A stretch of DNA of 59,143 nt from a virus (Duplodnaviria > Caudoviricetes). Positions 1 through 24,654 of this stretch are shown piece after piece. Position 1 is the first letter of the stretch, and each line of letters starts with the position of its first letter. The notes under the pieces are model-generated. The model was not told where the DNA came from, made no database searches, and worked only from the letters and a program-made list of their open reading frames with translations. The stretch lies in IMG/VR virus record IMGVR_UViG_3300031589_000002, positions 1 to 59,143 of that record; one strand, 5' to 3'. The position numbers and the translations under genes were made by a program.

Positions 1-1714
1 AATTTGTAGCGTGATTAGTTTTGTCTTGTGCTTGAATCCAACTACCATAAGGACTTGCATTTTGAACCCCCATCATTAATCCGTGTGTGCCACCTGCACT
101 ATATAAACTTAAAAAACCTGTTGAAGTGCTTCCCGATGTTGCAGGATTTCCTTGTGTTCCTGCTATTCTTAATTTAACATTTGGGTCAGTCGTTCCAATA
201 CCAACATTGCCGGCTTTTGTGATTGAAACTTTAGGAGTATCCACGTTTGCTGTACCTATCACAAAGTTATCAGTAGCATCATCATGACCAATAGTATATT
301 GAATTACTCCAGCGTTTGAAAACTTAATCTCTGTGTCAGAACCTGCGGGTGCGTTTAAACCAATCCTAGAATCCCCACTGGCTGAATTTACGTATAACTT
401 TTCAGCAGGATAACCTGGCCCGATATTTAATCTATTATTAAACCTGTCCCAACTTAAATTTGCATTACTATCTAGATTCGAATTTCCAGTAAAGAAAGGA
501 ATTCGAGTAGGCACACCACCACCAGTAATTGTGCCTGTTCCTGCAACCGCCCAAGTACCATCTTCTTTTAAGAAAGTTCCAGTAGCTGCACCTGTTGCGT
601 CTGGTACGTAACCAGGAGTAGTTCCGATAAAATCTTTAGCTTTAACCCATCCGTCATTAGAAACAGTAAAATCAGCACTATCAAACCCTGCTAAACCTTT
701 AGTAGTGTTTGCGTCTGTAGTTCCTGATCCAGCGAATCCAATGTTACTCTGAACCTCTGTCCAGTCACCTACTGTGGTTGGATTGTCTACGTTTGCTATA
801 ATCAAATCACCTACATTAAGAGGAGGACTCCAAAAAGAAGTGGAAGGACCAGCTGTAACGGCATAAGTCCATCCCTGTAATACTCCAGTTCCGCCTGTTG
901 TTAAATCAGGGGAGTTCGTTATAGCATTGTACCCTCCTTGATAAACAAGAGATCCAGCTACATTGCTATCAACATAAGCTTTTGTTGCCGCTTGTAGAGC
1001 TAAAGTGGGATCACTTGGTAAAGCTATTGCTCCAGTCATAGTCCCGCCAGCTAAAGGTAGATAACTAGCGTTTTTAGTATCTACATAACCTTTTGTTGTT
1101 AAAGTTGTAGCGGTGTCTGCGTCTACCGTTGCCGTTGAGGTTGCTTTACCTGTTACTGATATTCCCGTGGTTGATGTTGCTAGTTTTACATTGTTTGCAT
1201 GTCTAATAGTTACTCCACTTGTAGAGTTAATATTTAATAGACCTGTATCATTAGATATTTGGGCTCCACCTGCGTGGTATATCTTTAAGTCATTAGATGA
1301 TCCGAACGTCACTCTATTATTAACATTCATGTTAATGTTTCCAGCCATAGTTCCACCAGCTAGCGGTAAATAATTAGTATTACCTTGAGTGTCTACATAA
1401 TTTTTAGTGGCCGCATCTTGAGCATCTGTTGGATTAACTACGTTTTTTATTTTATGGTTAAGCATACTGAGCTCGCCATCTATAGACAAAGCGCCTGAAC
1501 CCTGCGAAACAATAGAGTCTACAAATGTAGTAGCATTACTTCTAAGTGGTATAGCATTGTCTGTGGGGTTAATGCTTGTCCCAGCATCGGCTAAGTCACT
1601 AAAAGATATATTACCTGAGCCGTCAGTAACTAACGCTTGACCATTTGTTCCATCCTGAGTAGGTAAAGTATACTCGTCATTTATATTTATACTGTTTTTA
1701 AATCTTACAGCCAT
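1..1714 (-). CDS. Tail fibre / receptor-binding protein, partial (runs off left edge; absent from ORF track)
   Basis: ATG at 1714 (MAVRFKNSININDEYTLPTQDGTNGQALVTDGSG), open to position 1 by my reading. Contains repeated ATKxYVD...YLPLAGGTMxG fibre motifs and GNVGIGTTDP, typical of Bacteroidota phage fibres. Confidence 0.85.
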   Translation of the reverse strand, partial: MAVRFKNSININDEYTLPTQDGTNGQALVTDGSGNISFSDLADAGTSINPTDNAIPLRSNATTFVDSIVSQGSGALSIDGELSMLNHKIKNVVNPTDAQDAATKNYVDTQGNTNYLPLAGGTMAGNINMNVNNRVTFGSSNDLKIYHAGGAQISNDTGLLNINSTSGVTIRHANNVKLATSTTGISVTGKATSTATVDADTATTLTTKGYVDTKNASYLPLAGGTMTGAIALPSDPTLALQAATKAYVDSNVAGSLVYQGGYNAITNSPDLTTGGTGVLQGWTYAVTAGPSTSFWSPPLNVGDLIIANVDNPTTVGDWTEVQSNIGFAGSGTTDANTTKGLAGFDSADFTVSNDGWVKAKDFIGTTPGYVPDATGAATGTFLKEDGTWAVAGTGTITGGGVPTRIPFFTGNSNLDSNANLSWDRFNNRLNIGPGYPAEKLYVNSASGDSRIGLNAPAGSDTEIKFSNAGVIQYTIGHDDATDNFVIGTANVDTPKVSITKAGNVGIGTTDPNVKLRIAGTQGNPATSGSTSTGFLSLYSAGGTHGLMMGVQNASPYGSWIQAQDKTNHATN

Positions 1715-1724
1715 ATTTTATGTA

Positions 1725-2693
1725 TTAAATTTTAGTCACAAGCACTCTTATTGAGTTTGCAGATGGAGCTGTTGTAAACGCTACGTCTACCGTGTTTACG
1801 TTTGTTCTAGTAACGTCGGAAAAAATAGTTTCAAATGTAGATGCATCATAAAGTTGTACTATAATGTCTCTTGTACCTAAGTTATGTGCAACAGAAACAG
1901 ATGTTGCGCCTCCTATGGTAGTAGCAAATGTATTGTTTGAAATAGCGGTTGCTAATCCAAGCGGAGTAACTGCAATGGTTTCTAATGTCCCGGCTGTAGC
2001 TTCAGCGACCGTGGCTAGTCTTGTAACACCATCTACAAATGTAGTAGCATCACGAGCACCAATTTCTGCTACCCCATTAGTTCTTTGAACTAATATTGCA
2101 GGGTCAGAGGCATCTACGTAATAAACTAGTGGATCGTAATTTGTCCCGTCGTTGGTTACTTCCCAACGATCTATATTGTCATTCCACTGTAACCTTGTGT
2201 TTGCTTCAGTTCCTCGCTCTACTTCGATACCACTCCTAAGTGTAGTTGGAGCAGCTCCAGTTTGACCGTTATTTAAAACAATTATATTGTCAGTAACATC
2301 TAAATTAGTAGTATTAACTGTAGTTGTAGTTCCGTTAACAGTTAAATCTCCTGCTAATACAGTATTGCCCGTTACGTTTAAAGTACCGCCCACATTTAAG
2401 TTACCAGATGTAGTAGTATGTACAGCTGTTCCGCTACCTATAACAACCGAAGAATCAATCTGAGGTAATCTTGCCTTAAGATTATCTAAATTTACGTTTA
2501 TATCAGTATTCGCAGCACTAACCCAAGCTGAGCCGTTGTAAAAGCGCAACTCGTTATCGGTCGAATCGTAGTATATTTGTCCTTCAGCGGGAGTTGATAA
2601 GCTTGTAGCTGATGAACTTGTTTCTACTTGGATTCTTGCTTTCTTTAATTGATTTTTATTTAAATCAATATCTGATAGATGTTTTATTGCCAT
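1725..2693 (-). CDS. Virion tail/fibre-associated structural protein
   Basis: Thr/Gly/Asn-rich beta-type sequence with GQIYYDSTDNELRFYNGSAW and LTVNGTTTTVNTTNL motifs. C-terminal ..HNLG.. domain is shared with the next gene. Confidence 0.7.
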   Translation of the reverse strand: MAIKHLSDIDLNKNQLKKARIQVETSSSATSLSTPAEGQIYYDSTDNELRFYNGSAWVSAANTDINVNLDNLKARLPQIDSSVVIGSGTAVHTTTSGNLNVGGTLNVTGNTVLAGDLTVNGTTTTVNTTNLDVTDNIIVLNNGQTGAAPTTLRSGIEVERGTEANTRLQWNDNIDRWEVTNDGTNYDPLVYYVDASDPAILVQRTNGVAEIGARDATTFVDGVTRLATVAEATAGTLETIAVTPLGLATAISNNTFATTIGGATSVSVAHNLGTRDIIVQLYDASTFETIFSDVTRTNVNTVDVAFTTAPSANSIRVLVTKI

Positions 2694-2699
2694 GGGTGT

Positions 2700-3050
2700 T
2701 TAGTTTAAAAATGCTTTTCCTGAGATTGCTGCACTTAATGTTATTACTATTGTGTTGTTTGATTCGTAATTGACTTCGCCATATATCACATCATCATCAT
2801 TGTCTACTAGTACCACTGCAGGGTACTTAGTTAAATTATGATTTATTGTCCATACGGCAGATGGGGAATTCTGCTCATGTATATAAGAGTTTATTTCATC
2901 CTGCCCCGGCACGTTTATAGTACTAGTCACTATTGTTCTAACTGTACCCATTGAATAGTTTTTAGTCTGCCCCGTTTCCGAATCAGTACCTATAAGTTTA
3001 TCGTCTACGCTGGGTGTTGAATCTATGCCGTAAGTTGATATTCTAGCCAT
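2700..3050 (-). CDS. Small virion structural protein (tail-associated)
   Basis: MARISTY N-terminus and WTINHNLTKYPAV domain resembling the C-terminus of 1725..2693; lies within the fibre cluster. Confidence 0.6.
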   Translation of the reverse strand: MARISTYGIDSTPSVDDKLIGTDSETGQTKNYSMGTVRTIVTSTINVPGQDEINSYIHEQNSPSAVWTINHNLTKYPAVVLVDNDDDVIYGEVNYESNNTIVITLSAAISGKAFLN

Positions 3051-3051
3051 T

Positions 3052-3501
3052 TTATAATTTGTCTTTGTTAAATTTATCTATCGCATGTGCGTATACTTTG
3101 TCTACATAAGTTTTGCGCTTTCCTATAACACTACGTTTAGCATCAATAGGCATTTCTTCTTGGCAAATCAATATCTTGTATATCCTATTGATTAATCTCT
3201 TACCTCGAAGAGATACTTTATATTTGTTATGATCACCTAAGCGGCCATTACCTTTATGTATCTTTTCTACCCAGCCTTCTCTTTGTAGCCTGTAAAAGCG
3301 CTGTCGGTCCCAATGATAATACATTGTGCCGTTCTGAAAATCTTTTATTGTAAAGTATTTTATAGGATCTAGATAAAATAACAATTCCAAATCTGAAATG
3401 GATATATCATTTTCTTTGCAAGCCCAACGTGAAACAAGTCTATAATATTTAAGAAAATCAACTTTAAGCTCACCTCTTTCTAAAAAATCATCTCTGTCCA
3501 T
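3052..3501 (-). CDS. Winged-helix (MarR-like) DNA-binding protein, putative
   Basis: ISISDLELLFYL...FYRLQREGWVEK...YKVSLRGKRL pattern resembles a MarR-type wHTH (by eye). Confidence 0.5.
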   Translation of the reverse strand: MDRDDFLERGELKVDFLKYYRLVSRWACKENDISISDLELLFYLDPIKYFTIKDFQNGTMYYHWDRQRFYRLQREGWVEKIHKGNGRLGDHNKYKVSLRGKRLINRIYKILICQEEMPIDAKRSVIGKRKTYVDKVYAHAIDKFNKDKL

Positions 3502-3761
3502 TATAAGACTATAATAACGTCCTGCTCCTGTATAACTTTAAATATTTTTTTATTAATTTCAATGTTATGTCCCGCAATACGATCGTAGTATATTTTGTCT
3601 CCCTCTACAATGCCTTCAACACGCACACCAACTGACTCTACGTCAGCGGTGCGGTATCTTATATCTTCTCTATGGTTTTCTGCTAAAAGCAGGCCACCTT
3701 CTGTTTTTTGTATCTCTTCCTTTATCTCGGAAATTATAATGTAATTACCTATCGCTTTCAT
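3501..3761 (-). CDS. groES: Co-chaperonin GroES (Cpn10)
   Basis: KTEGGLLL mobile loop, V.SVG..V..I.EGD.I.Y and final DVIIVL; overlaps groEL. Confidence 0.9.
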   Translation of the reverse strand: MKAIGNYIIISEIKEEIQKTEGGLLLAENHREDIRYRTADVESVGVRVEGIVEGDKIYYDRIAGHNIEINKKIFKVIQEQDVIIVL

Positions 3762-5343
3762 AATCTCTAATATTTGAAATTACACAATCAGTTGATAAGA
3801 TAGTTGTTGCTACCGAAACCGCATTTTGTAGTGCAGACTTAGTAACTAGCACGGGATCAATAATACCTGCTTTACGCATGTCTTTAACTTTTCCATCAGT
3901 CACGTCTACTCCTGCTCCCCATTTATCTAGATCTTTATAGTTTGCTGGGTCTAACCCGGCATTTGTCAAGATGCGCACAAATGGTGAGTGCAATGCTCTT
4001 TTTATAATCTCCACCCCAATCTCTTCGCCTTTATTGGCTGTGTTTACTTTTAGAGTGCTAGATAAAAAACACAATGCTGAACCACCTCCAGGAAGTATAC
4101 CTTCCTTCTTAGCAGCTCTAACTGCGTGTATAGCATCATCTACCCTGTCTTTCTTTTCAGAGACCTCTACTTCAGTGTCACCGCCTACGTAGACAATAGA
4201 TACGCCTCCGTTTAGAATAGCTAGTCTGCTTTCTAAGTGTGGTCGCATAACGTGATGTTCGTCCTCCTCTAATTGAGATTGTAAATACTCTACGCGTTCT
4301 TTAACTCCTTCTGCTGCTTCCGCAATAGCTAGAGTAGTCCCGTCGTTATCTATGATGGCCTTGTCGGCTCTTCCTAACACTTCAGGGGTGATATTATCTA
4401 GAGAGTCTCCTAAACCTTCATCAATAACAGTAGCACCCGTTAGAAGGGCAATATCATCAAGTACATCCTTCCGTTTCAGTCCGAATGATGGAGGATCAAT
4501 AATATTGCACTTAATATTGCCTTTTACGTGGTTCATCGCAAGAGCTGATACAACCTGCTGATCGCAAGGGGCAATGAGTAGCAATGCTCGATTGGACTTG
4601 ATTGCATACTCTAATATTGTTTGTATTCGTCGAACGTTAGACACTTCGGACGAACATAGAAATACAAGCGGCTTATCTAGCTCACTTAATTCTTTTTCTT
4701 TATTAGTATGGAAATACATACTTTTAGTCGTAGACTTAATATGTGTTCCGTCAACTGCTTCGATATAGGTTTCATTACTTGGACTTGTTTCCATTGTAAC
4801 TACACCGTTATCACCAGCTAATTTAAAAGCCTCAGCAATAAAGTCTCCAAGTAAGGGATCGTTATTGGCTGATATGCGTGACACATGATTTAATCGTTTG
4901 TCATCTACATCTACACCTTTCTTAGTAAGCGCATCTACCGTAAGTTTAGTAAACGCAAGCATACCGTTTTTAACATCACGAAACGAGTACTTCTCTGCAT
5001 CTAAGCCAAAGTAATTTTTAATTACTGACTGTGCTAATACCGTTGAGGTTGTTGTTCCATCACCAGCTTTCGATGCCGTTTGTCTAGACGCTTGTTTAAG
5101 CATAGTCACACCTAGGTTCTCTACTGGGTCTTCTAAGTTTATATAGTTTGCTACGGTTACACCATCCTTTGTAACGTGAGGGTTACCGAAGTCATCTTCT
5201 AATACTACCGTACGACCAGACGCACCTAGTGTACTGCCTACTGCTTCTGCTAATTTGTTTATTCCTGAGATTAGTCCGTCTTTAGCTTCTTTCTTAAAGC
5301 TTAGTTCTTTGACTATCTTCGGGGATCCGAATTGTATTGCCAT
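3745..5343 (-). CDS. groEL: Chaperonin GroEL (Cpn60)
   Basis: VTKDGVTVA, AGDGTTTSTVLA, EKKDRVDDA, GILPGGG, GIIDP motifs; no C-terminal GGM tail. Confidence 0.97.
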   Translation of the reverse strand: MAIQFGSPKIVKELSFKKEAKDGLISGINKLAEAVGSTLGASGRTVVLEDDFGNPHVTKDGVTVANYINLEDPVENLGVTMLKQASRQTASKAGDGTTTSTVLAQSVIKNYFGLDAEKYSFRDVKNGMLAFTKLTVDALTKKGVDVDDKRLNHVSRISANNDPLLGDFIAEAFKLAGDNGVVTMETSPSNETYIEAVDGTHIKSTTKSMYFHTNKEKELSELDKPLVFLCSSEVSNVRRIQTILEYAIKSNRALLLIAPCDQQVVSALAMNHVKGNIKCNIIDPPSFGLKRKDVLDDIALLTGATVIDEGLGDSLDNITPEVLGRADKAIIDNDGTTLAIAEAAEGVKERVEYLQSQLEEDEHHVMRPHLESRLAILNGGVSIVYVGGDTEVEVSEKKDRVDDAIHAVRAAKKEGILPGGGSALCFLSSTLKVNTANKGEEIGVEIIKRALHSPFVRILTNAGLDPANYKDLDKWGAGVDVTDGKVKDMRKAGIIDPVLVTKSALQNAVSVATTILSTDCVISNIRDYESDR

Positions 5344-5382
5344 TTAATTTGATTTAATTGAATAAAATTTATAAGATATATA

Positions 5383-5736
5383 TTAGCAGTTCCATTTACG
5401 ACGTGCTGCTCTACCACGCTCTGATTTCCATGATTTGGATCTAGCACAAAAAGCTTTACGTCTTTTAGCTGCTTTACTTCCTTTCTTAAGTTTAGAGGGA
5501 GGTGTTGTTACAGCTGTCTTTAATTTAGAACCTGGGTTGTCTTTTCTATACTTAGCTACACCCTTAGCTGTCATGCCACCACCAGCTTTACCACCAGTGC
5601 CACTGCCTGATTTAACCTTAGCGTAATAGCCTTTTGATTTTTTACGAGACGGTGCTTTACCTTTCTTCCGTTCTAGAGGAGAACCGCCTGCGCAGGTGCA
5701 CGTAGCATGCTTTGCTGTTAATGGTATTGCTTTCAT
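5383..5736 (-). CDS. Small Lys/Arg-rich phage protein
   Basis: Highly basic; GGMTAKGVAKYRKDNPGSKLKTAVT...RRKAFCARS...WNC is a motif I recognise from marine phage hypothetical proteins. Confidence 0.8.
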   Translation of the reverse strand: MKAIPLTAKHATCTCAGGSPLERKKGKAPSRKKSKGYYAKVKSGSGTGGKAGGGMTAKGVAKYRKDNPGSKLKTAVTTPPSKLKKGSKAAKRRKAFCARSKSWKSERGRAARRKWNC

Positions 5737-5972
5737 GTAGTATTGTATTTCTTAGTTCCTTTACCGTGACCACCTCTATTAGCAGCAACGCTAACAAACT
5801 TTTTCTTATTGTGATCCCAGTCTTTACCTTTTATATTTATCCCCTTCTTAAGTGCATCGCGTCTTTTCTTTTGTGTCTCCGCCTTCATAGCTCTACGCCG
5901 GGGAGTTTTAGCATATGCAAGATCACGGGCCGCTTTTTTCTTACGAGCCGCTGGAGATAATTTTTGTGGCAT
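5733..5972 (-). CDS. Small basic protein with degenerate HNH-like KDWDH...NRG motif
   Basis: ORF track; overlapping start/stop with both neighbours. Confidence 0.7.
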   Translation of the reverse strand: MPQKLSPAARKKKAARDLAYAKTPRRRAMKAETQKKRRDALKKGINIKGKDWDHNKKKFVSVAANRGGHGKGTKKYNTT

Positions 5973-6115
5973 TATTTATTGTACCCGCCGTAGCTAGAGT
6001 TTTTTTGTTTTTTTAAAGGCACTGACATTCTTTTAAGAGGTCCTGTTTTTGTTTCGGCTCTTCCTGCCATTTTCTTAAACACTCCAGGTGTTACTGTTTT
6101 TCCTTTTGTTCCCAT
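5972..6115 (-). CDS. 47-aa basic protein (not in ORF track)
   Basis: MGTKGKTVTPGVFKKMAGRAETKTGPLKRMSVPLKKQKNSSYGGYNK; fills the gap exactly, its TAA overlaps the next ATG. Confidence 0.7.
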   Translation of the reverse strand: MGTKGKTVTPGVFKKMAGRAETKTGPLKRMSVPLKKQKNSSYGGYNK

Positions 6116-6119
6116 AATT

Positions 6120-6374
6120 TTATTTTTTCTTTTTAATAGATGAAGTGCGCTTACCCATACCTGTGCGTTTCTTCTCTGATACAGCTTTTCGCTTTTGAGA
6201 AGAACTCATTTCGTTCCATGCTACAGGCGTAGACTTTGATATTCTAACCGAGGGTCTGCACTTCTTTATTTTCTTATTCTTAGTAGAACCGCAAGGGTTA
6301 CCTTTTTCGTCAGTCCATTTTTCTTTAAACCACCGTTTAAGGTTTGCTCCCTTTTTAGTTTTACTTACTGCCAT
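6120..6374 (-). CDS. Small basic protein (LKRWFKEKW..PCG..KCRP type)
   Basis: ORF track; motif typical of conserved viral basic proteins. Confidence 0.75.
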   Translation of the reverse strand: MAVSKTKKGANLKRWFKEKWTDEKGNPCGSTKNKKIKKCRPSVRISKSTPVAWNEMSSSQKRKAVSEKKRTGMGKRTSSIKKKK

Positions 6375-6375
6375 T

Positions 6376-6792
6376 CTATTTTTTCTTTAATTCCTTATAA
6401 GCTGCATCTCTGTCATCAAAATCCAATGCTGCTTTAAGTATGATCTTATCCATTACGTTATCCTGGTTCTCCAAAATAGTCCTCTGCAAATCAATGATCA
6501 TATTCTCTAAGTTATCCTTAGCTGCTACCAGTTGTTCTATCTGGTCGCTTTTCTTTTCTACTTCTGTTCTAAGCGCGTTTACGTCATCCGGTTTACTTCC
6601 AGTGATAGTAGACACAACTAAACCAATTGAAGCTGATATGGTACCTATGAGCATCATCACTACCTCTTTATTACTCTCTAGAACTGGGTACTTCATCATT
6701 ATAAATATAATGGACATAACCAGTAAGAATATAAATAGTGATCCGACGTAGTGTCTTAATTCTTTAGCGACTCCGTTAGTAGGTAGTTTCAT
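6376..6792 (-). CDS. Two-TM membrane protein with C-terminal coiled coil
   Basis: Two hydrophobic stretches followed by heptad-rich helix. Confidence 0.7.
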   Translation of the reverse strand: MKLPTNGVAKELRHYVGSLFIFLLVMSIIFIMMKYPVLESNKEVVMMLIGTISASIGLVVSTITGSKPDDVNALRTEVEKKSDQIEQLVAAKDNLENMIIDLQRTILENQDNVMDKIILKAALDFDDRDAAYKELKKK

Positions 6793-6794
6793 AT

Positions 6795-6935
6795 CTATTT
6801 GTTTTTTCTACACTTAGCAATCGCGCCCGACGCATAAGCGCTCGGGAACACCTTGTATTGTTTCTTTACTTTATGGTAGCAGGCATCCTTTTTAAATAAA
6901 GGGGATGTAGCTTGTGGGCGGTTTGCTTTTTTCAT
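6795..6935 (-). CDS. 46-aa basic protein (not in ORF track)
   Basis: MKKANRPQATSPLFKKDACYHKVKKQYKVFPSAYASGAIAKCRKNK; the DACYHKVK..FPSAYASGA motif is familiar from marine phages; fits the gap. Confidence 0.75.
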   Translation of the reverse strand: MKKANRPQATSPLFKKDACYHKVKKQYKVFPSAYASGAIAKCRKNK

Positions 6936-6947
6936 AGTGTATTGTAG

Positions 6948-7199
6948 TTAGATCTCTTCGGTCTCGACCTCTTCGACTTCCGCTTCCGCTTCTACCGATG
7001 CAATCAATTCTTTAGAGAACGCTGATTCTGCGAACTTTAGCTGTTCTAAGCCAAATTCAGCAGTACCTATTTTATTACGTAAGTCATACACGTGGTTAAC
7101 CATCAACTTTTGCGGGTCGGTGAGTTCACTCTCGTTGTAATCTTTACTGTTAATAGTAATAACTTGTTCTTTGATTTCTTCTGTTTTCTTTTTAGTCAT
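6948..7199 (-). CDS. Acidic hypothetical protein
   Basis: ORF track; AT-rich TAAATTATATATT leader; acidic C-terminal tail. Confidence 0.75.
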   Translation of the reverse strand: MTKKKTEEIKEQVITINSKDYNESELTDPQKLMVNHVYDLRNKIGTAEFGLEQLKFAESAFSKELIASVEAEAEVEEVETEEI

Positions 7200-7230
7200 A
7201 ATATATAATTTAATTGGTTACATGTTTTTT

Positions 7231-7420
7231 AATCATAAGGGCACCTCAGTCCAATGAAGGTTACCAGGTACCCCATGACTCTACTTTGAATAGTGCAACG
7301 ATCTGTACGTTCACTGCCTCAACCACTTCCTAGGTGGTATCTGAAAGGAACTAAGCAAAAAAGCAACTATATGACACCTGCCTCGATGGGGCAGCCTTAA
7401 CATAACGTGTCCATTAAGGT
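7231..7420 (-). ncRNA. Candidate structured RNA with two pseudoknots and two hairpins, family unknown
   Basis: GC-richer intergenic block with helices 7395-7400/7414-7419, 7378-7382/7390-7394, 7373-7377/7407-7411, 7327-7331/7346-7350, 7322-7326/7334-7338, 7292-7315 and 7231-7279. G-U pairs form on the minus strand only. Confidence 0.55.
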
Positions 7421-7436
7421 AGCGATTCTTAAATAG

Positions 7437-7597
7437 TTACTTTTTCTTTGTCTTACGAACAGGTTTCTTTTTAGCAACCTTCTTTTTAACTGTTTTCTTC
7501 TTAGGCTTCTTCTTTTGAAGTGCAGACTGTAACTTATTAGCAGCTGCTCCTACAAGCGCTTTCTTAGCAATAGCCCAAGTATTAATGGTAATGGCAT
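7437..7597 (-). pseudogene. Histone-H1-like Lys-rich ~53-aa ORF interrupted by a 1-nt frameshift (possible sequencing error)
   Basis: ATG CCA TTA CCA TTA ATA CTT GG(G) GCT ATT GCT AAG...; adding one G at 7574-7576 gives MPLPLILGAIAKKALVGAAANKLQSALQKKKPKKKTVKKKVAKKKPVRKTKKK. Span is 161 nt (3n-1). Confidence 0.65.
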
Positions 7598-7619
7598 ATG
7601 TGTGTGTTTTAAATTAGTA

Positions 7620-8010
7620 TTTCATATATAAAAGTAAAGTGTTGCATTATACATTTAGCAACGATATCGTAATATAGAAGCCATATGTGCAACGTATGCG
7701 GCATATTATCGTATTATTAGTGACGTTTGTTACATTTTATCGATGTATTGTCATTATTTATACGTTCGTACTACGTTATTGTATGTCATACTGTCATGAC
7801 ACTACGTTATATTCAGTACATTGTTATATACACTGCATAATATGTAACGTATTGATTGTATTGTTATTAAGTTAGCAATAAATATTGTAGTTGCTTGCAC
7901 ATTGTGTAATTGCTTTATAACACATTGCATTATATTTGGTGATTAATATGTTTTATCACATTATATTTATATAAACGTATGCTTAAGTACTTATATAATA
8001 TATATTACAT
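7620..8010. other. Divergent non-coding control region (candidate origin or genome-end region)
   Basis: AT-rich with no credible ORF; strand switch point; several TACGTT/AACGTA hexamers. Confidence 0.5.
7817..7853 (-). promoter_or_regulatory. Inverted copy of the phage early motif (perfect AATACGTTACA, degenerate second half)
   Basis: tgtaacgtatt at 7843-7853 is the exact reverse complement. ATAACAATGTA follows 15 nt downstream (7/11 match to GTGATAATATA). Confidence 0.4.
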
Positions 8011-8013
8011 AAA

Positions 8014-8044
8014 TTTGTAAAAAGGTATAATTTTTGTATATTTG
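8014..8044 (+). promoter_or_regulatory. Bacteroidota housekeeping-sigma promoter (-33 TTTG, -7 TAnnTTTG)
   Basis: TTTG 8014-8017, 19-nt spacer, TATATTTG 8037-8044, matching the Bacteroides/Flavobacterium consensus. A second TATATTTG lies at 7931-7938. Confidence 0.6.
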
Positions 8045-8050
8045 TAATAA

Positions 8051-8086
8051 AATACGTTACAGATCGCAGTTTATTGTGATAATATA
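8051..8086 (+). promoter_or_regulatory. Phage early promoter motif, copy 1
   Basis: AATACGTTACA-N14-GTGATAATATA. Confidence 0.85.
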
Positions 8087-8114
8087 TATGTAAGTAACAA
8101 AGTAACAGTCTTAC

Positions 8115-8230
8115 GGAGTTTTATAAAAGTGATTGCCTCCACAATATTAATCATTGACCCTTAACCGGGAATCGCCAGGGTTCGATAAACAACCTCGAGC
8201 ATGACTAAATAAAGTCCTAGAAATAGGCAT
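8115..8230 (+). other. Structured 5' leader or small RNA candidate downstream of the first early promoter
   Basis: Possible pseudoknot GGAG/CTCC with AGTGATT/AATCATT; helices GACCCT/AGGGTT, TCGA/TCGA, GACT/AGTC and CCTA-GAAA-TAGG. Confidence 0.3.
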
Positions 8231-8236
8231 TAAATT

Positions 8237-8425
8237 ATGAGAATACTACGAGAAAAAAGATTAAATCAAGAGTTAATAAACGGTGTTACACTAACTGAAT
8301 TAAGATCCAAACTATACGATGAAATGTATATATTTCAAGACAACGACAGATTGTTGCAAGCAATAGGTGTTAATAAAGATATTAAAATAGTTGAAGAGTG
8401 GATTGAATTAGATAAAAATAATTAA
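8237..8425 (+). CDS. Early hypothetical protein
   Basis: ORF track; TAAATTATG leader. Confidence 0.7.
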   Translation: MRILREKRLNQELINGVTLTELRSKLYDEMYIFQDNDRLLQAIGVNKDIKIVEEWIELDKNN

Positions 8426-8429
8426 TAAA

Positions 8430-8465
8430 AATACGTTACAAACCATCTAAGATTGTGATAATATA
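8430..8465 (+). promoter_or_regulatory. Phage early promoter motif, copy 2
   Basis: AATACGTTACA-N14-GTGATAATATA. Confidence 0.85.
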
Positions 8466-8487
8466 AGTGTAATTAAAAATATAAACT

Positions 8488-8664
8488 ATGAGATTTCCAA
8501 ACACATTTACTACAGAAAACAAAATAACTTTTTACACACAAAGAAAAAGAGAAATGACTAAACAGTTTAATAAATTTTCTAAACTAAATAAAATAGAACA
8601 TTCTAATAAATTAAAGAAAGAAATAGAAATCTGTGAAGTAGAATTATTAAACTTAAATAAATAA
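8488..8664 (+). CDS. 58-aa early protein (not in ORF track)
   Basis: MRFPNTFTTENKITFYTQRKREM...; directly after promoter copy 2. Confidence 0.65.
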   Translation: MRFPNTFTTENKITFYTQRKREMTKQFNKFSKLNKIEHSNKLKKEIEICEVELLNLNK

Positions 8665-8668
8665 GAAT

Positions 8669-8770
8669 ATGAAAACAGAATACACTTTTGAAAGTTTAAA
8701 TGAGTGGAGTAATGGAGATTTAGTATGGTTAGTACTAGAAATGCAAGAAGAATTAAAAAATAAAATATAA
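8669..8770 (+). CDS. 33-aa early protein (not in track)
   Basis: MKTEYTFESLNEWSNGDLVWLVLEMQEELKNKI; shared TAAGAATATGA leader. Confidence 0.6.
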   Translation: MKTEYTFESLNEWSNGDLVWLVLEMQEELKNKI

Positions 8771-8774
8771 GAAT

Positions 8775-8921
8775 ATGAGAATGTTTAAAATAACTAAAGT
8801 ACAAACTTGGAATAAAAACGGAATCCCTACAAATTGGATTAAGTATATGAAAAGTGAAACAATTGAAAATGTAATAAAACATTTTGGAACTGAAAACATT
8901 TTGGAAGTAGAAGAAGTATAA
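8775..8921 (+). CDS. 48-aa early protein (not in track)
   Basis: MRMFKITKVQTWNKNGIPTNW...; shared TAAGAATATGA leader. Confidence 0.6.
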   Translation: MRMFKITKVQTWNKNGIPTNWIKYMKSETIENVIKHFGTENILEVEEV

Positions 8922-8936
8922 ATAAAATATAAGAAT

Positions 8937-9158
8937 ATGAAAGAATTAAAAGAATATATGGAAGCTAAGAAAAAAGCTAACGCTTTAAAGTGGATGAAAG
9001 TAAATGGCTTCAACACTATCCAAGGATTCACACAGAGCGAGTTTAATGAATCCGTTAAACAAATAAAGCGTAAGACCTCAACAACTAGAAGAAGTCACTC
9101 TAAAGGCAATTTATGGACTCACAATAATTTACCACAAATTAAGCAAGATATCTTATAA
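8937..9158 (+). CDS. Early basic hypothetical protein
   Basis: ORF track; shared leader. Confidence 0.7.
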   Translation: MKELKEYMEAKKKANALKWMKVNGFNTIQGFTQSEFNESVKQIKRKTSTTRRSHSKGNLWTHNNLPQIKQDIL

Positions 9159-24617: not shown

Positions 24618-24654
24618 TAAAAAGGGGACTCCAATTACGGGGTCCCCTTTTTTA
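24618..24654. terminator. Bidirectional intrinsic terminator between convergent units
   Basis: AAAAA-GGGGACTCC-AATTAC-GGGGTCCCC-TTTTTT. Confidence 0.9.

Follow-up and report, generated by a model that had tools for sequence, protein, structure and literature searches.

A structured RNA cassette of an uncatalogued family at the head of a long gene block in marine phage genomes

An intergenic element of about 205 nt in a marine phage genome is very probably a real RNA that is maintained by selection, structured on its sense strand and a member of an uncatalogued family. It lies on the minus strand at positions 7425–7231 of the window, by which we mean the whole stretch of DNA analyzed here, an IMG/VR virus record of 59,143 bp with an estimated completeness of 92%. 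Within this window, the element extends from an invariant UCGCUA (7425–7420) to the end of a long hairpin (7231). An initial annotation, made from the letters of the window alone, had correctly placed it at these coordinates and on this strand and had called it a novel non-coding RNA of unknown family. Our results agree with this description, since the element is conserved, structured on the sense strand only, non-coding and without a match in Rfam. The alignment of its homologues supports a row of five hairpins (P1–P5) with invariant loops and junctions.

Results

Genomic location and phage background

The element is housed in an intergenic interval (7440–7200, minus strand) between a Lys-rich ORF, the stop codon of which is located at 7439–7437 (minus strand), and an ORF encoding 83 amino acids (7199–6948, minus strand). 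As had been noted in the initial annotation, it forms a mild GC island, with a GC content of 0.46 at 7250–7399 vs 0.31–0.39 alongside. The GC content of the divergent region at 7700–8100 is 0.19–0.30.

The window encodes a GroEL-like chaperonin (3745–5343), a primase/helicase, a ligase, a ribonucleotide reductase, a terminase, a portal protein and virion proteins. Its GroEL is 39–41% identical to the GroELs of cultured Flavobacterium phages, and in a published survey, environmental genomes that carry GroEL and are related to Cellulophaga phage phi38:1 are assigned to phages infecting Flavobacteriaceae (PMC5332604). Based on this similarity and on the assignment as published there, the carriers of the element are probably GroEL-encoding phages of marine Flavobacteriaceae.

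Homologues of the element

A search with GroEL yielded 45 related IMG/VR loci, nine of which contain the element as judged by blastn and nhmmer. Exact-pattern scans of IMG/VR derived from the invariant core returned 11, 12 and 12 contigs, which represent the same set bar one addition (L055). In metagenomes, 33 of 34 pattern matches were real, and the remaining one (L057), a GC-rich and unrelated chance match, was discarded. The 12 IMG/VR contigs and 33 metagenome contigs comprise 34 distinct variants of the element, of which 30 include the 5′ end and 28 are full length; as a product of exact-pattern scans, this set is biased towards close relatives. One variant (L077) is a mosaic recombinant, in which the 5′ part of one type is joined to P5 of the other type.

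The search was then widened beyond close relatives. The region 7150–7500 was compared by blastn with 50,697 phage records, and the sole match was an AT-rich stretch of 32 nt outside the element, found in five Lak phages, which we judge to be due to chance. Relatives sought via the 83-amino-acid downstream protein gave 179 pattern matches, none of which could be confirmed. A covariance-model search for divergent copies in 43 groEL loci and 80 loci of the neighboring p138 gene recovered known copies only, and its three weak matches (E 0.02–0.07) were all located in loci that already contained a strong match. Exact patterns from the P3 and P3–P4 segments were also run in two scans against 185,579 species genomes of bacteria and archaea. 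The first scan gave no match and the second three, without any real homologue: the three sequences, from Nocardioides, Methylotenera and an Eremiobacterota MAG, were rejected by the covariance model. Because no match from the species genomes was accepted, the family would seem to be known from one marine phage lineage only, keeping in mind that exact-pattern searches cannot reach distant members.

The element is non-coding and matches no known RNA family

ARAGORN identified no tRNA or tmRNA gene in the window. The comparison with Rfam that the initial annotation had proposed returned no match at the gathering score for any of the 4227 families of Rfam 15, again over the whole window. If matches with E values up to 10 were allowed in the region 6900–7800, three appeared, all at chance level (E 1.2–8.9), far below gathering and unrelated to tRNA or tmRNA. 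The earlier statement that no tRNA or tmRNA signature is present therefore holds for both programs. The loci of seven relatives gave no Rfam match inside the element at E values up to 1. In one relative (L061, 3451–3528, plus strand), a weak partial match to the Rfam tmRNA model was observed about 2.8 kb from the element (24.8 bits compared with a gathering score of 47, E 2e-6), which might be a tRNA-like sequence.

Conserved coding potential, which had been named in the initial annotation as an argument against an RNA, was not found: none of the frames is kept open across the 28 variants examined. Most variants have stop codons within the element in every frame, and the longest stop-free stretch, the frame of which is variable, usually covers at most 39 of about 70 codons. 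An antisense frame that is open over all 70 codons is present in L026 and is not kept in other variants. Indels between the variants measure 1, 2, 5 and 13–14 nt and are thus not multiples of three. The degree of conservation was compared between the window and four diverged relatives (L009, L026, L021 and L006). In these four comparisons, the P3–P4 segment is 92–94% identical, groEL DNA is 75–81% identical and p138 DNA is 77–78% identical where alignable.

Structure model

A covariance model, R1, with 210 positions and 52 pairs was built on a five-helix model obtained from RNAfold, RNAalifold and inspection. It matches the window at 7219–7431 with a score of 245 bits (E 4.8e-66). According to the extent of this model and the homology boundaries seen in alignments A1–A3, the whole conserved RNA cassette spans 7222–7431 (minus strand). 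The 28 full-length variants were realigned to R1, resulting in alignment A5. In this alignment, which is fitted to the model and hence favors it, none of 500 shuffles reaches the counts observed for the whole structure, and sliding the pairing partners by 1–3 columns decreases pairing from 99.2% to 34–48%. The hairpins CCUUAA/UUAAGG (P1), CUGCC/GGCAG (P2), UUCCU/AGGAA (P3), GUG-AACG/CGUU-G-CAC (P4) and the long stem (P5), all of which had already been noticed in the window, are kept in 28 of 28 full-length variants.

The cassette begins with the invariant segment UCGCUA (7420–7425, minus strand), which is identical in all 28 variants. This 5′ boundary, at UCGCUACC, is sharp, and the sequence 5′ of UCGCUA differs among at least four contexts. 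In P1 (7395–7419, minus strand), the asymmetric internal loop AUGGAC separates CCUUA/UAAGG from an inner stem, ACG/UGU; the pairs of P1 are kept in 27–28 of the 28 variants, with one one-sided change. Seven variants carry an insertion of 13–14 nt that extends the inner stem from three to eight pairs. A mini-hairpin (CC-loop-GG) was considered as an alternative for the 5′ side of P1, as indels fall in its loop. It was dropped, because two pairs are unstable alone and RNAfold prefers P1.

P2 (7378–7394, minus strand), the CUGCC/GGCAG hairpin, directly abuts P1. All of its cells are paired, with two one-sided C-to-U changes, and its loop varies in length, up to two extra hairpins within the loop in L006. 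The junction J2/3 (7355–7377, minus strand) starts with an invariant GUGUCAUA followed by a variable linker; GGCAGGUGUCAUA is invariant, while the remainder depends on the type, with one inserted hairpin in L061 and two in L006. P3 (7323–7354, minus strand), which is predicted by both RNAalifold and RNAfold, has the form YUA-G-UUCCU/AGGAA-G-UGG with a 14-nt loop containing ACCAC. Its cells are paired to 100%, with one one-sided change (U-G to C-G) in nine of the 28 variants. P4 (7287–7321, minus strand; UGAG..GUGAACG/CGUU-G-CAC..UUCA) is likewise paired in 100% of the cells, with four one-sided changes that preserve the pair, and has a variable loop of 7 nt (UACAGAU, UACAGGU, UUUAGGU or UUCAGGU). 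Insertions sit in loops or extend stems, and one of the inserted hairpins has a GCAA loop.

P5 (7231–7280, minus strand) is an irregular hairpin with 20 model pairs (about 22 in the RNAfold fold) and a conserved apex (GU-AA-CC/GG-AC). Its pairing is strongly supported by covariation: nine of the 20 pairs change on both sides, and the observed value was reached by none of 500 shuffles. P5 occurs in at least four sequence types that share one fold; for three of these types, the z-scores are −4.0, −5.4 and −4.6. The apex, composed of GU, two bulged A residues, CC, a loop of 4–6 nt, GG and AC, is kept in 27 of 28 variants. In the window, P5 folds on the sense strand with −23.4 kcal/mol (z −4.0), compared with −12.0 kcal/mol (z −0.9) on the antisense strand. 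In the window, eight of the 52 model pairs are G-U, corresponding to A-C mismatches on the opposite strand.

For P1–P4, zero pairs change on both sides, and these helices vary too little for covariation to test them. Only eight of 64 paired columns of the P1–P4 core are substituted, in each case by transitions that keep the pair as a wobble, except for one cell in L021. Among the unpaired core columns, 33 of 75 vary, including transversions and indels. The substitutions in P1–P4 thus follow the pattern of helices. Folding of the whole 241-nt interval revealed no extra stability relative to shuffles (z −0.81). The test for homologues and covariation suggested in the initial annotation therefore has two outcomes: it confirms P5, whereas P1–P4, the pseudoknots and the switch remain without covariation.

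Pseudoknots and alternative pairings

The element had initially been described as a compact multi-pseudoknot RNA, a description that the alignment does not support. The two pairings in question, GACAC:GUGUC and ACCAC:GUGGU, are possible in 27–28 of the 28 variants and near-invariant, with 500 of 500 shuffles equal to the observed value. Because the pairings are invariant, covariation says nothing on either of them. L021 lacks GACAC altogether, yet has GUGUCAUA. The pairing ACCAC:GUGGU competes with an extension of P3 for the same G residues. As a classical H-type fold it would be sterically doubtful and is unlikely, since no loop is left between AGGAA and GUGGU.

The two alternative pairings that had suggested a switch are not conserved either. 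GCCCCAU/AUGGGGU can form in the window only; the relatives have AUAGGGU, and many of them a shorter P2 loop. The second pairing, AUAGUUGC/GCACUAU, is impossible in nine of 28 variants, in which five of its bases are missing. Four further conserved pairings (UCGCU:AGUGA, GGUGU:GCACY, AUAGU-GC:GCACUAU and UAACC:GGUUG) are possible and show no covariation signal. Taken across the variants, all six alternative or tertiary pairings that were checked can form and none is informative.

Occurrence in RNA libraries

In a run index, six metatranscriptome runs contained 7–14% of the sampled words of 6800–7800, and four of these runs, from four studies, were examined. Contigs reaching from 7226/7230 to 7430/7448 were present in all four RNA libraries. 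Such contigs demonstrate presence only, not strand, ends or level (one depth figure each). The lack of a transcript, which the initial annotation would have counted against an RNA, is thereby answered in part: the element occurs in contigs of four of four RNA libraries, but DNA carry-over is possible and the strand is not given. In three of the four runs, the contigs extend into sequence unlike the window. Two loose contig ends could be matched to the flanking gene of a relative (a Cys/His ORF and the start of a Lys-rich ORF), and one contig joins 6917 to 7226, as in relatives without the 83-amino-acid gene.

The Lys-rich ORF of the window (7437–7616, minus strand) has no in-frame ATG, GTG or TTG start. 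An ATG at 7597–7595 opens a frame of 15 codons with a stop at 7550, and RNA-library contigs of relatives have an additional base behind 7574 or 7575 that would connect both frames. In this small gene, the window thus contains a real frameshift or else an error of assembly.

The element is transcribed as part of a longer RNA

The orientation of the element is always sense relative to the flanking genes and the operon. In G007, a complete genome of 63,142 bp with a 127-bp end repeat, it is located at 192–404 as the first feature of a co-directional block. Here, the element is followed by 30 same-strand ORFs of at least 100 amino acids between 549 and 46376 (∼46 kb), and the other 17 ORFs are encoded on the opposite strand. 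The block includes groEL as well as ORFs that match the terminase, portal and giant virion-protein genes of the window in size and order, and the gene layout of the window is the same.

Among the 30 variants with a 5′ end, the element is preceded by a Lys-rich ORF in 12, by a 52-amino-acid Cys/His ORF in seven, by the remnant of a gene start in eight and by other sequences in three. The 52-amino-acid ORF (L049, 14703–14861, minus strand, and six other variants) contains a Cys-x2-Cys … His-x4-His arrangement and lies directly 5′ of the element. The CCUUAA arm of P1 supplies the TAA stop codon of this ORF, and translation would thus enter the first helix. In L064 and the B-type variants the element directly follows the promoter-like region, and elsewhere it comes after one or two small ORFs.

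Neither a promoter nor a terminator of the element's own was found. P5 lacks a U-run at its 3′ side, where the window has AAAAAACAUG and the relatives have other non-U sequences, and positions 1–9000 contain no terminator-like sites on the minus strand. Where the rightward and leftward gene blocks meet, at 24619–24652, the phage has a canonical intrinsic terminator that works both ways and consists of an A-run, a GC-rich hairpin of 14 bp and a T-run. Since the strand of the element shows no U-run or terminator, even though the phage uses a canonical terminator elsewhere, the element RNA is made as part of a longer transcript.

Within the divergent region, a block of ∼100 nt (window 7620–7710, minus strand; …CCGCATACGTTG…TTGCTAAAT…GCAACAC…) recurs upstream of the leftward genes of relatives, irrespective of whether these carry the element. 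This block is probably a leftward promoter or operator, with no fit in a scan for the sigma-70 consensus. Another stretch with a mildly raised GC content is the leader upstream of the first rightward gene (8075–8240, plus strand; ATG at 8237), with 84–97% conservation in at least 14 loci of relatives, several of which lack ∼30 nt (∼8172–8204).

The element is an optional cassette

The 138-amino-acid neighbor p138 is encoded in the best 80 IMG/VR loci, 11 of which contain the element. If only the 48 of these loci with at least 2 kb of upstream flank are considered, three carry it. It was found in none of five related large records, two of them at least 90% complete, in a search that recovers four of four known carriers. 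Eleven relatives without the element were inspected. In three, the promoter-like region runs straight into a gene encoding 46 amino acids; the remaining ones show different small ORFs at the position of the element. The element is therefore an optional cassette within its lineage, and this distribution excludes a leader that is essential for the 46-kb operon.

The initial annotation had also suggested a partnership with the neighboring basic proteins. This proposal is weakened by the distribution: DUF5872, DUF6321 and the 46-amino-acid protein also occur in relatives without the RNA, and no nearby gene co-occurs with the element in all carriers. In a comparison of ORF clusters between the promoter region and groEL in nine positive and 17 negative loci, none of the clusters combined presence in every positive locus with absence from the negative ones, and the only cluster with a 5:0 distribution was confined to near-identical contigs.

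Discussion

A leader acting in cis or a processed RNA acting in trans

Our preferred reading, held with less than even confidence, is that the element is a co-transcribed leader RNA module that would act in cis. Transcription would proceed from the divergent promoter region through the element into the ∼46-kb co-directional block, and the element would affect the transcript or the transcription complex that carries it. A factor of the host or of the phage may bind to the invariant P1–P4 core; this could be RNA polymerase together with elongation factors, or else a nuclease or other protein. P5, which is long and double-stranded, could be a processing or stability hairpin, with putative cleavage as at an RNase III site. 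Together, the core and P5 would raise the yield of the long downstream transcript.

We count in favor of cis action that the element is always in sense orientation, that it is located at the head of the 46-kb block, that no terminator follows P5, that the upstream ORF ends inside P1 in seven of 30 variants, and that contigs of four RNA libraries contain it. Counted against it are its optional carriage, the possible DNA carry-over in these libraries, the lack of downstream terminators to override (1–9000), the lack of both-sided changes in P1–P4 and the folding of the whole interval, which is no better than that of shuffles. Moreover, optional cassettes in hypervariable promoter-proximal zones of phages often provide host-takeover or counter-defence functions in trans.

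The put sites of phage HK022 and the nut sites of lambda (boxA/boxB) give rise to cis-acting antiterminator RNAs of lambdoid phages, which act on the polymerase transcribing them. A put RNA measures ∼70 nt and has two hairpins, and nut is composed of boxA and one small hairpin. Like the element, these RNAs are phage-encoded, contain stem-loops and precede the body of a long operon, just after the promoter or a first small ORF. The position of the element in G007, as a transcribed site between the promoter and the body of the operon, is of the same kind, and its 5′ segment CGCUACCUUAA presumably bears a loose resemblance to boxA. Unlike put and nut, the element comprises ∼205 nt and five helices, does not match them by sequence or model, is optional and has no detectable terminators to override (1–9000). 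Its host is probably a member of the Bacteroidota and not an enterobacterium.

P5 can be compared with the RNase III processing hairpins contained in the polycistronic transcripts of T7. Like these, it is an intergenic, irregular double-stranded RNA of about two helical turns in a polycistronic phage transcript, and its pairing is conserved while the sequence is free to change. With 20 model pairs (∼22 by RNAfold) and small bulges, it has the ∼20 bp or more of double-stranded RNA expected of an intergenic RNase III site. Unlike the T7 sites, it has an apex with a conserved bulge-and-loop motif and is attached to a conserved core of 150 nt.

For the presumed host phylum, leader-dependent elongation control by NusG paralogues (UpxY) has been reported in Bacteroides capsule operons (PMC11685472). 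This system and the element share the phylum and the transcription of a leader that precedes a long operon, a likeness of position only. The UpxY leader is described as giving specific elongation enhancement. Unlike the element, the system belongs to cells, and the operon encodes its own factor.

Nearly as likely as a cis-acting leader, and hence a serious possibility, is a trans-acting accessory RNA. Here, the element would be cut from the leader transcript, for example at P5, and a stable RNA of ∼200 nt would titrate a host protein or RNA as a decoy or sponge. This agrees with the sporadic, cassette-like distribution, the sharp boundaries with at least four upstream and several downstream contexts, and the location close to the promoter in a hypervariable zone. 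Conservation of the core extends from its structure to the sequence itself, as expected for contact with a conserved partner, and P5 is long enough for a double-strand-specific processing site. A precedent for phage RNA decoys is provided by RNA-based anti-CRISPRs (Racrs), which are reported to be small non-coding RNAs and sporadic accessory elements of phages (PMC10651486). As described there, Racrs are solitary CRISPR-repeat mimics of repeat size, and the element, with its ∼205 nt, is likened to them by type and sporadic carriage. A trans-acting RNA is disfavored by the lack of a promoter or terminator of its own and by the need to postulate its processing. In addition, the scans of 185,579 species genomes with two exact patterns (P3 and P3–P4) revealed no real host sequence that resembles these segments, and the element's complementarity to the rest of the window is at chance level, with 10 matches of at least 11 nt compared with ∼5.6 expected.

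Less probable explanations

We consider it improbable that the element senses a ligand or is catalytic, as a new riboswitch-like aptamer or self-cleaving ribozyme that controls or processes the polycistronic transcript. The near-invariance of the ∼60 nt of P3–P4 and the junctions is reminiscent of aptamer or catalytic cores, insertions of peripheral hairpins are tolerated, one of them with a GCAA loop, and several conserved alternative or tertiary pairings are possible. However, no ribozyme or riboswitch of Rfam matched even at E values up to 10, the two exact-pattern scans gave no real cellular homologue, and none of the pseudoknots is supported. Riboswitches combine an aptamer with a platform that overlaps a terminator or start codon and usually also occur in cells, whereas the element lacks an expression platform: P5 has no U-run, and at least 17 nt separate its end from the start codon that follows.

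A DNA-level or selfish element without RNA function, such as a recombination or replication site or a mobile cassette, is very improbable. Its cassette-like boundaries, mosaic recombinants (L077) and a position next to the AT-rich divergent region, which may hold a replication origin, would fit such an element. Nevertheless, the structure is strand-specific, with P5 losing about half of its stability on the other strand and eight of 52 pairs being G-U. P5 is also maintained by compensatory changes, and no consistent terminal repeats or target duplications were seen at the boundaries. That the element encodes a small protein is hardly credible, because the short open frames of the window (30 amino acids on the minus strand, 35 and 39 on the plus strand) are not kept across the variants, which differ by indels of 1, 2, 5 and 13–14 nt.

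Significance of the cassette

The evidence for the element is of the same kind as that for orphan Rfam motifs from marine and phage metagenomes, namely intergenic conservation, covariation and marine viral origin, but unlike these catalogued motifs it matches none of the 4227 Rfam families. If it comprises only a processing or stability hairpin and a leader, its contribution to the catalogued orphan RNA motifs would be modest. To our knowledge, phage-encoded structured RNAs are few, and those that are understood (put, pRNA and RNA anti-CRISPRs) each revealed a new mechanism. There is a small but appreciable chance that it is the founding member of a new functional class of phage RNAs, either an RNA-only reprogrammer of the Bacteroidota transcription complex or a processed decoy for defence or RNA-binding factors. 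It would then be a swappable module among phages of marine Flavobacteriaceae, and the invariant 60-nt P3–P4 core would be its binding or catalytic site.

The element represents a clean case, with sharp bounds, a core that is more conserved than the neighboring genes, one hairpin proven by covariation and contigs from marine RNA libraries that contain it. Its carriers all belong to one abundant group of phages, as yet uncultured and probably infecting Flavobacteriaceae, in which close relatives with and without the element form natural presence/absence pairs for testing its function once a member has been cultured.

A minor feature of the element is a motif (ACC, 3–6 nt, GGAC) that occurs twice on the minus strand, at the 5′ side of P1 (7411–7424) and at the apex of P5 (7250–7265). 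In the B-type variants, the two copies are almost identical (ACCUUAUGGAC and ACCGUAUGGAC), and they might be two binding sites for one factor.
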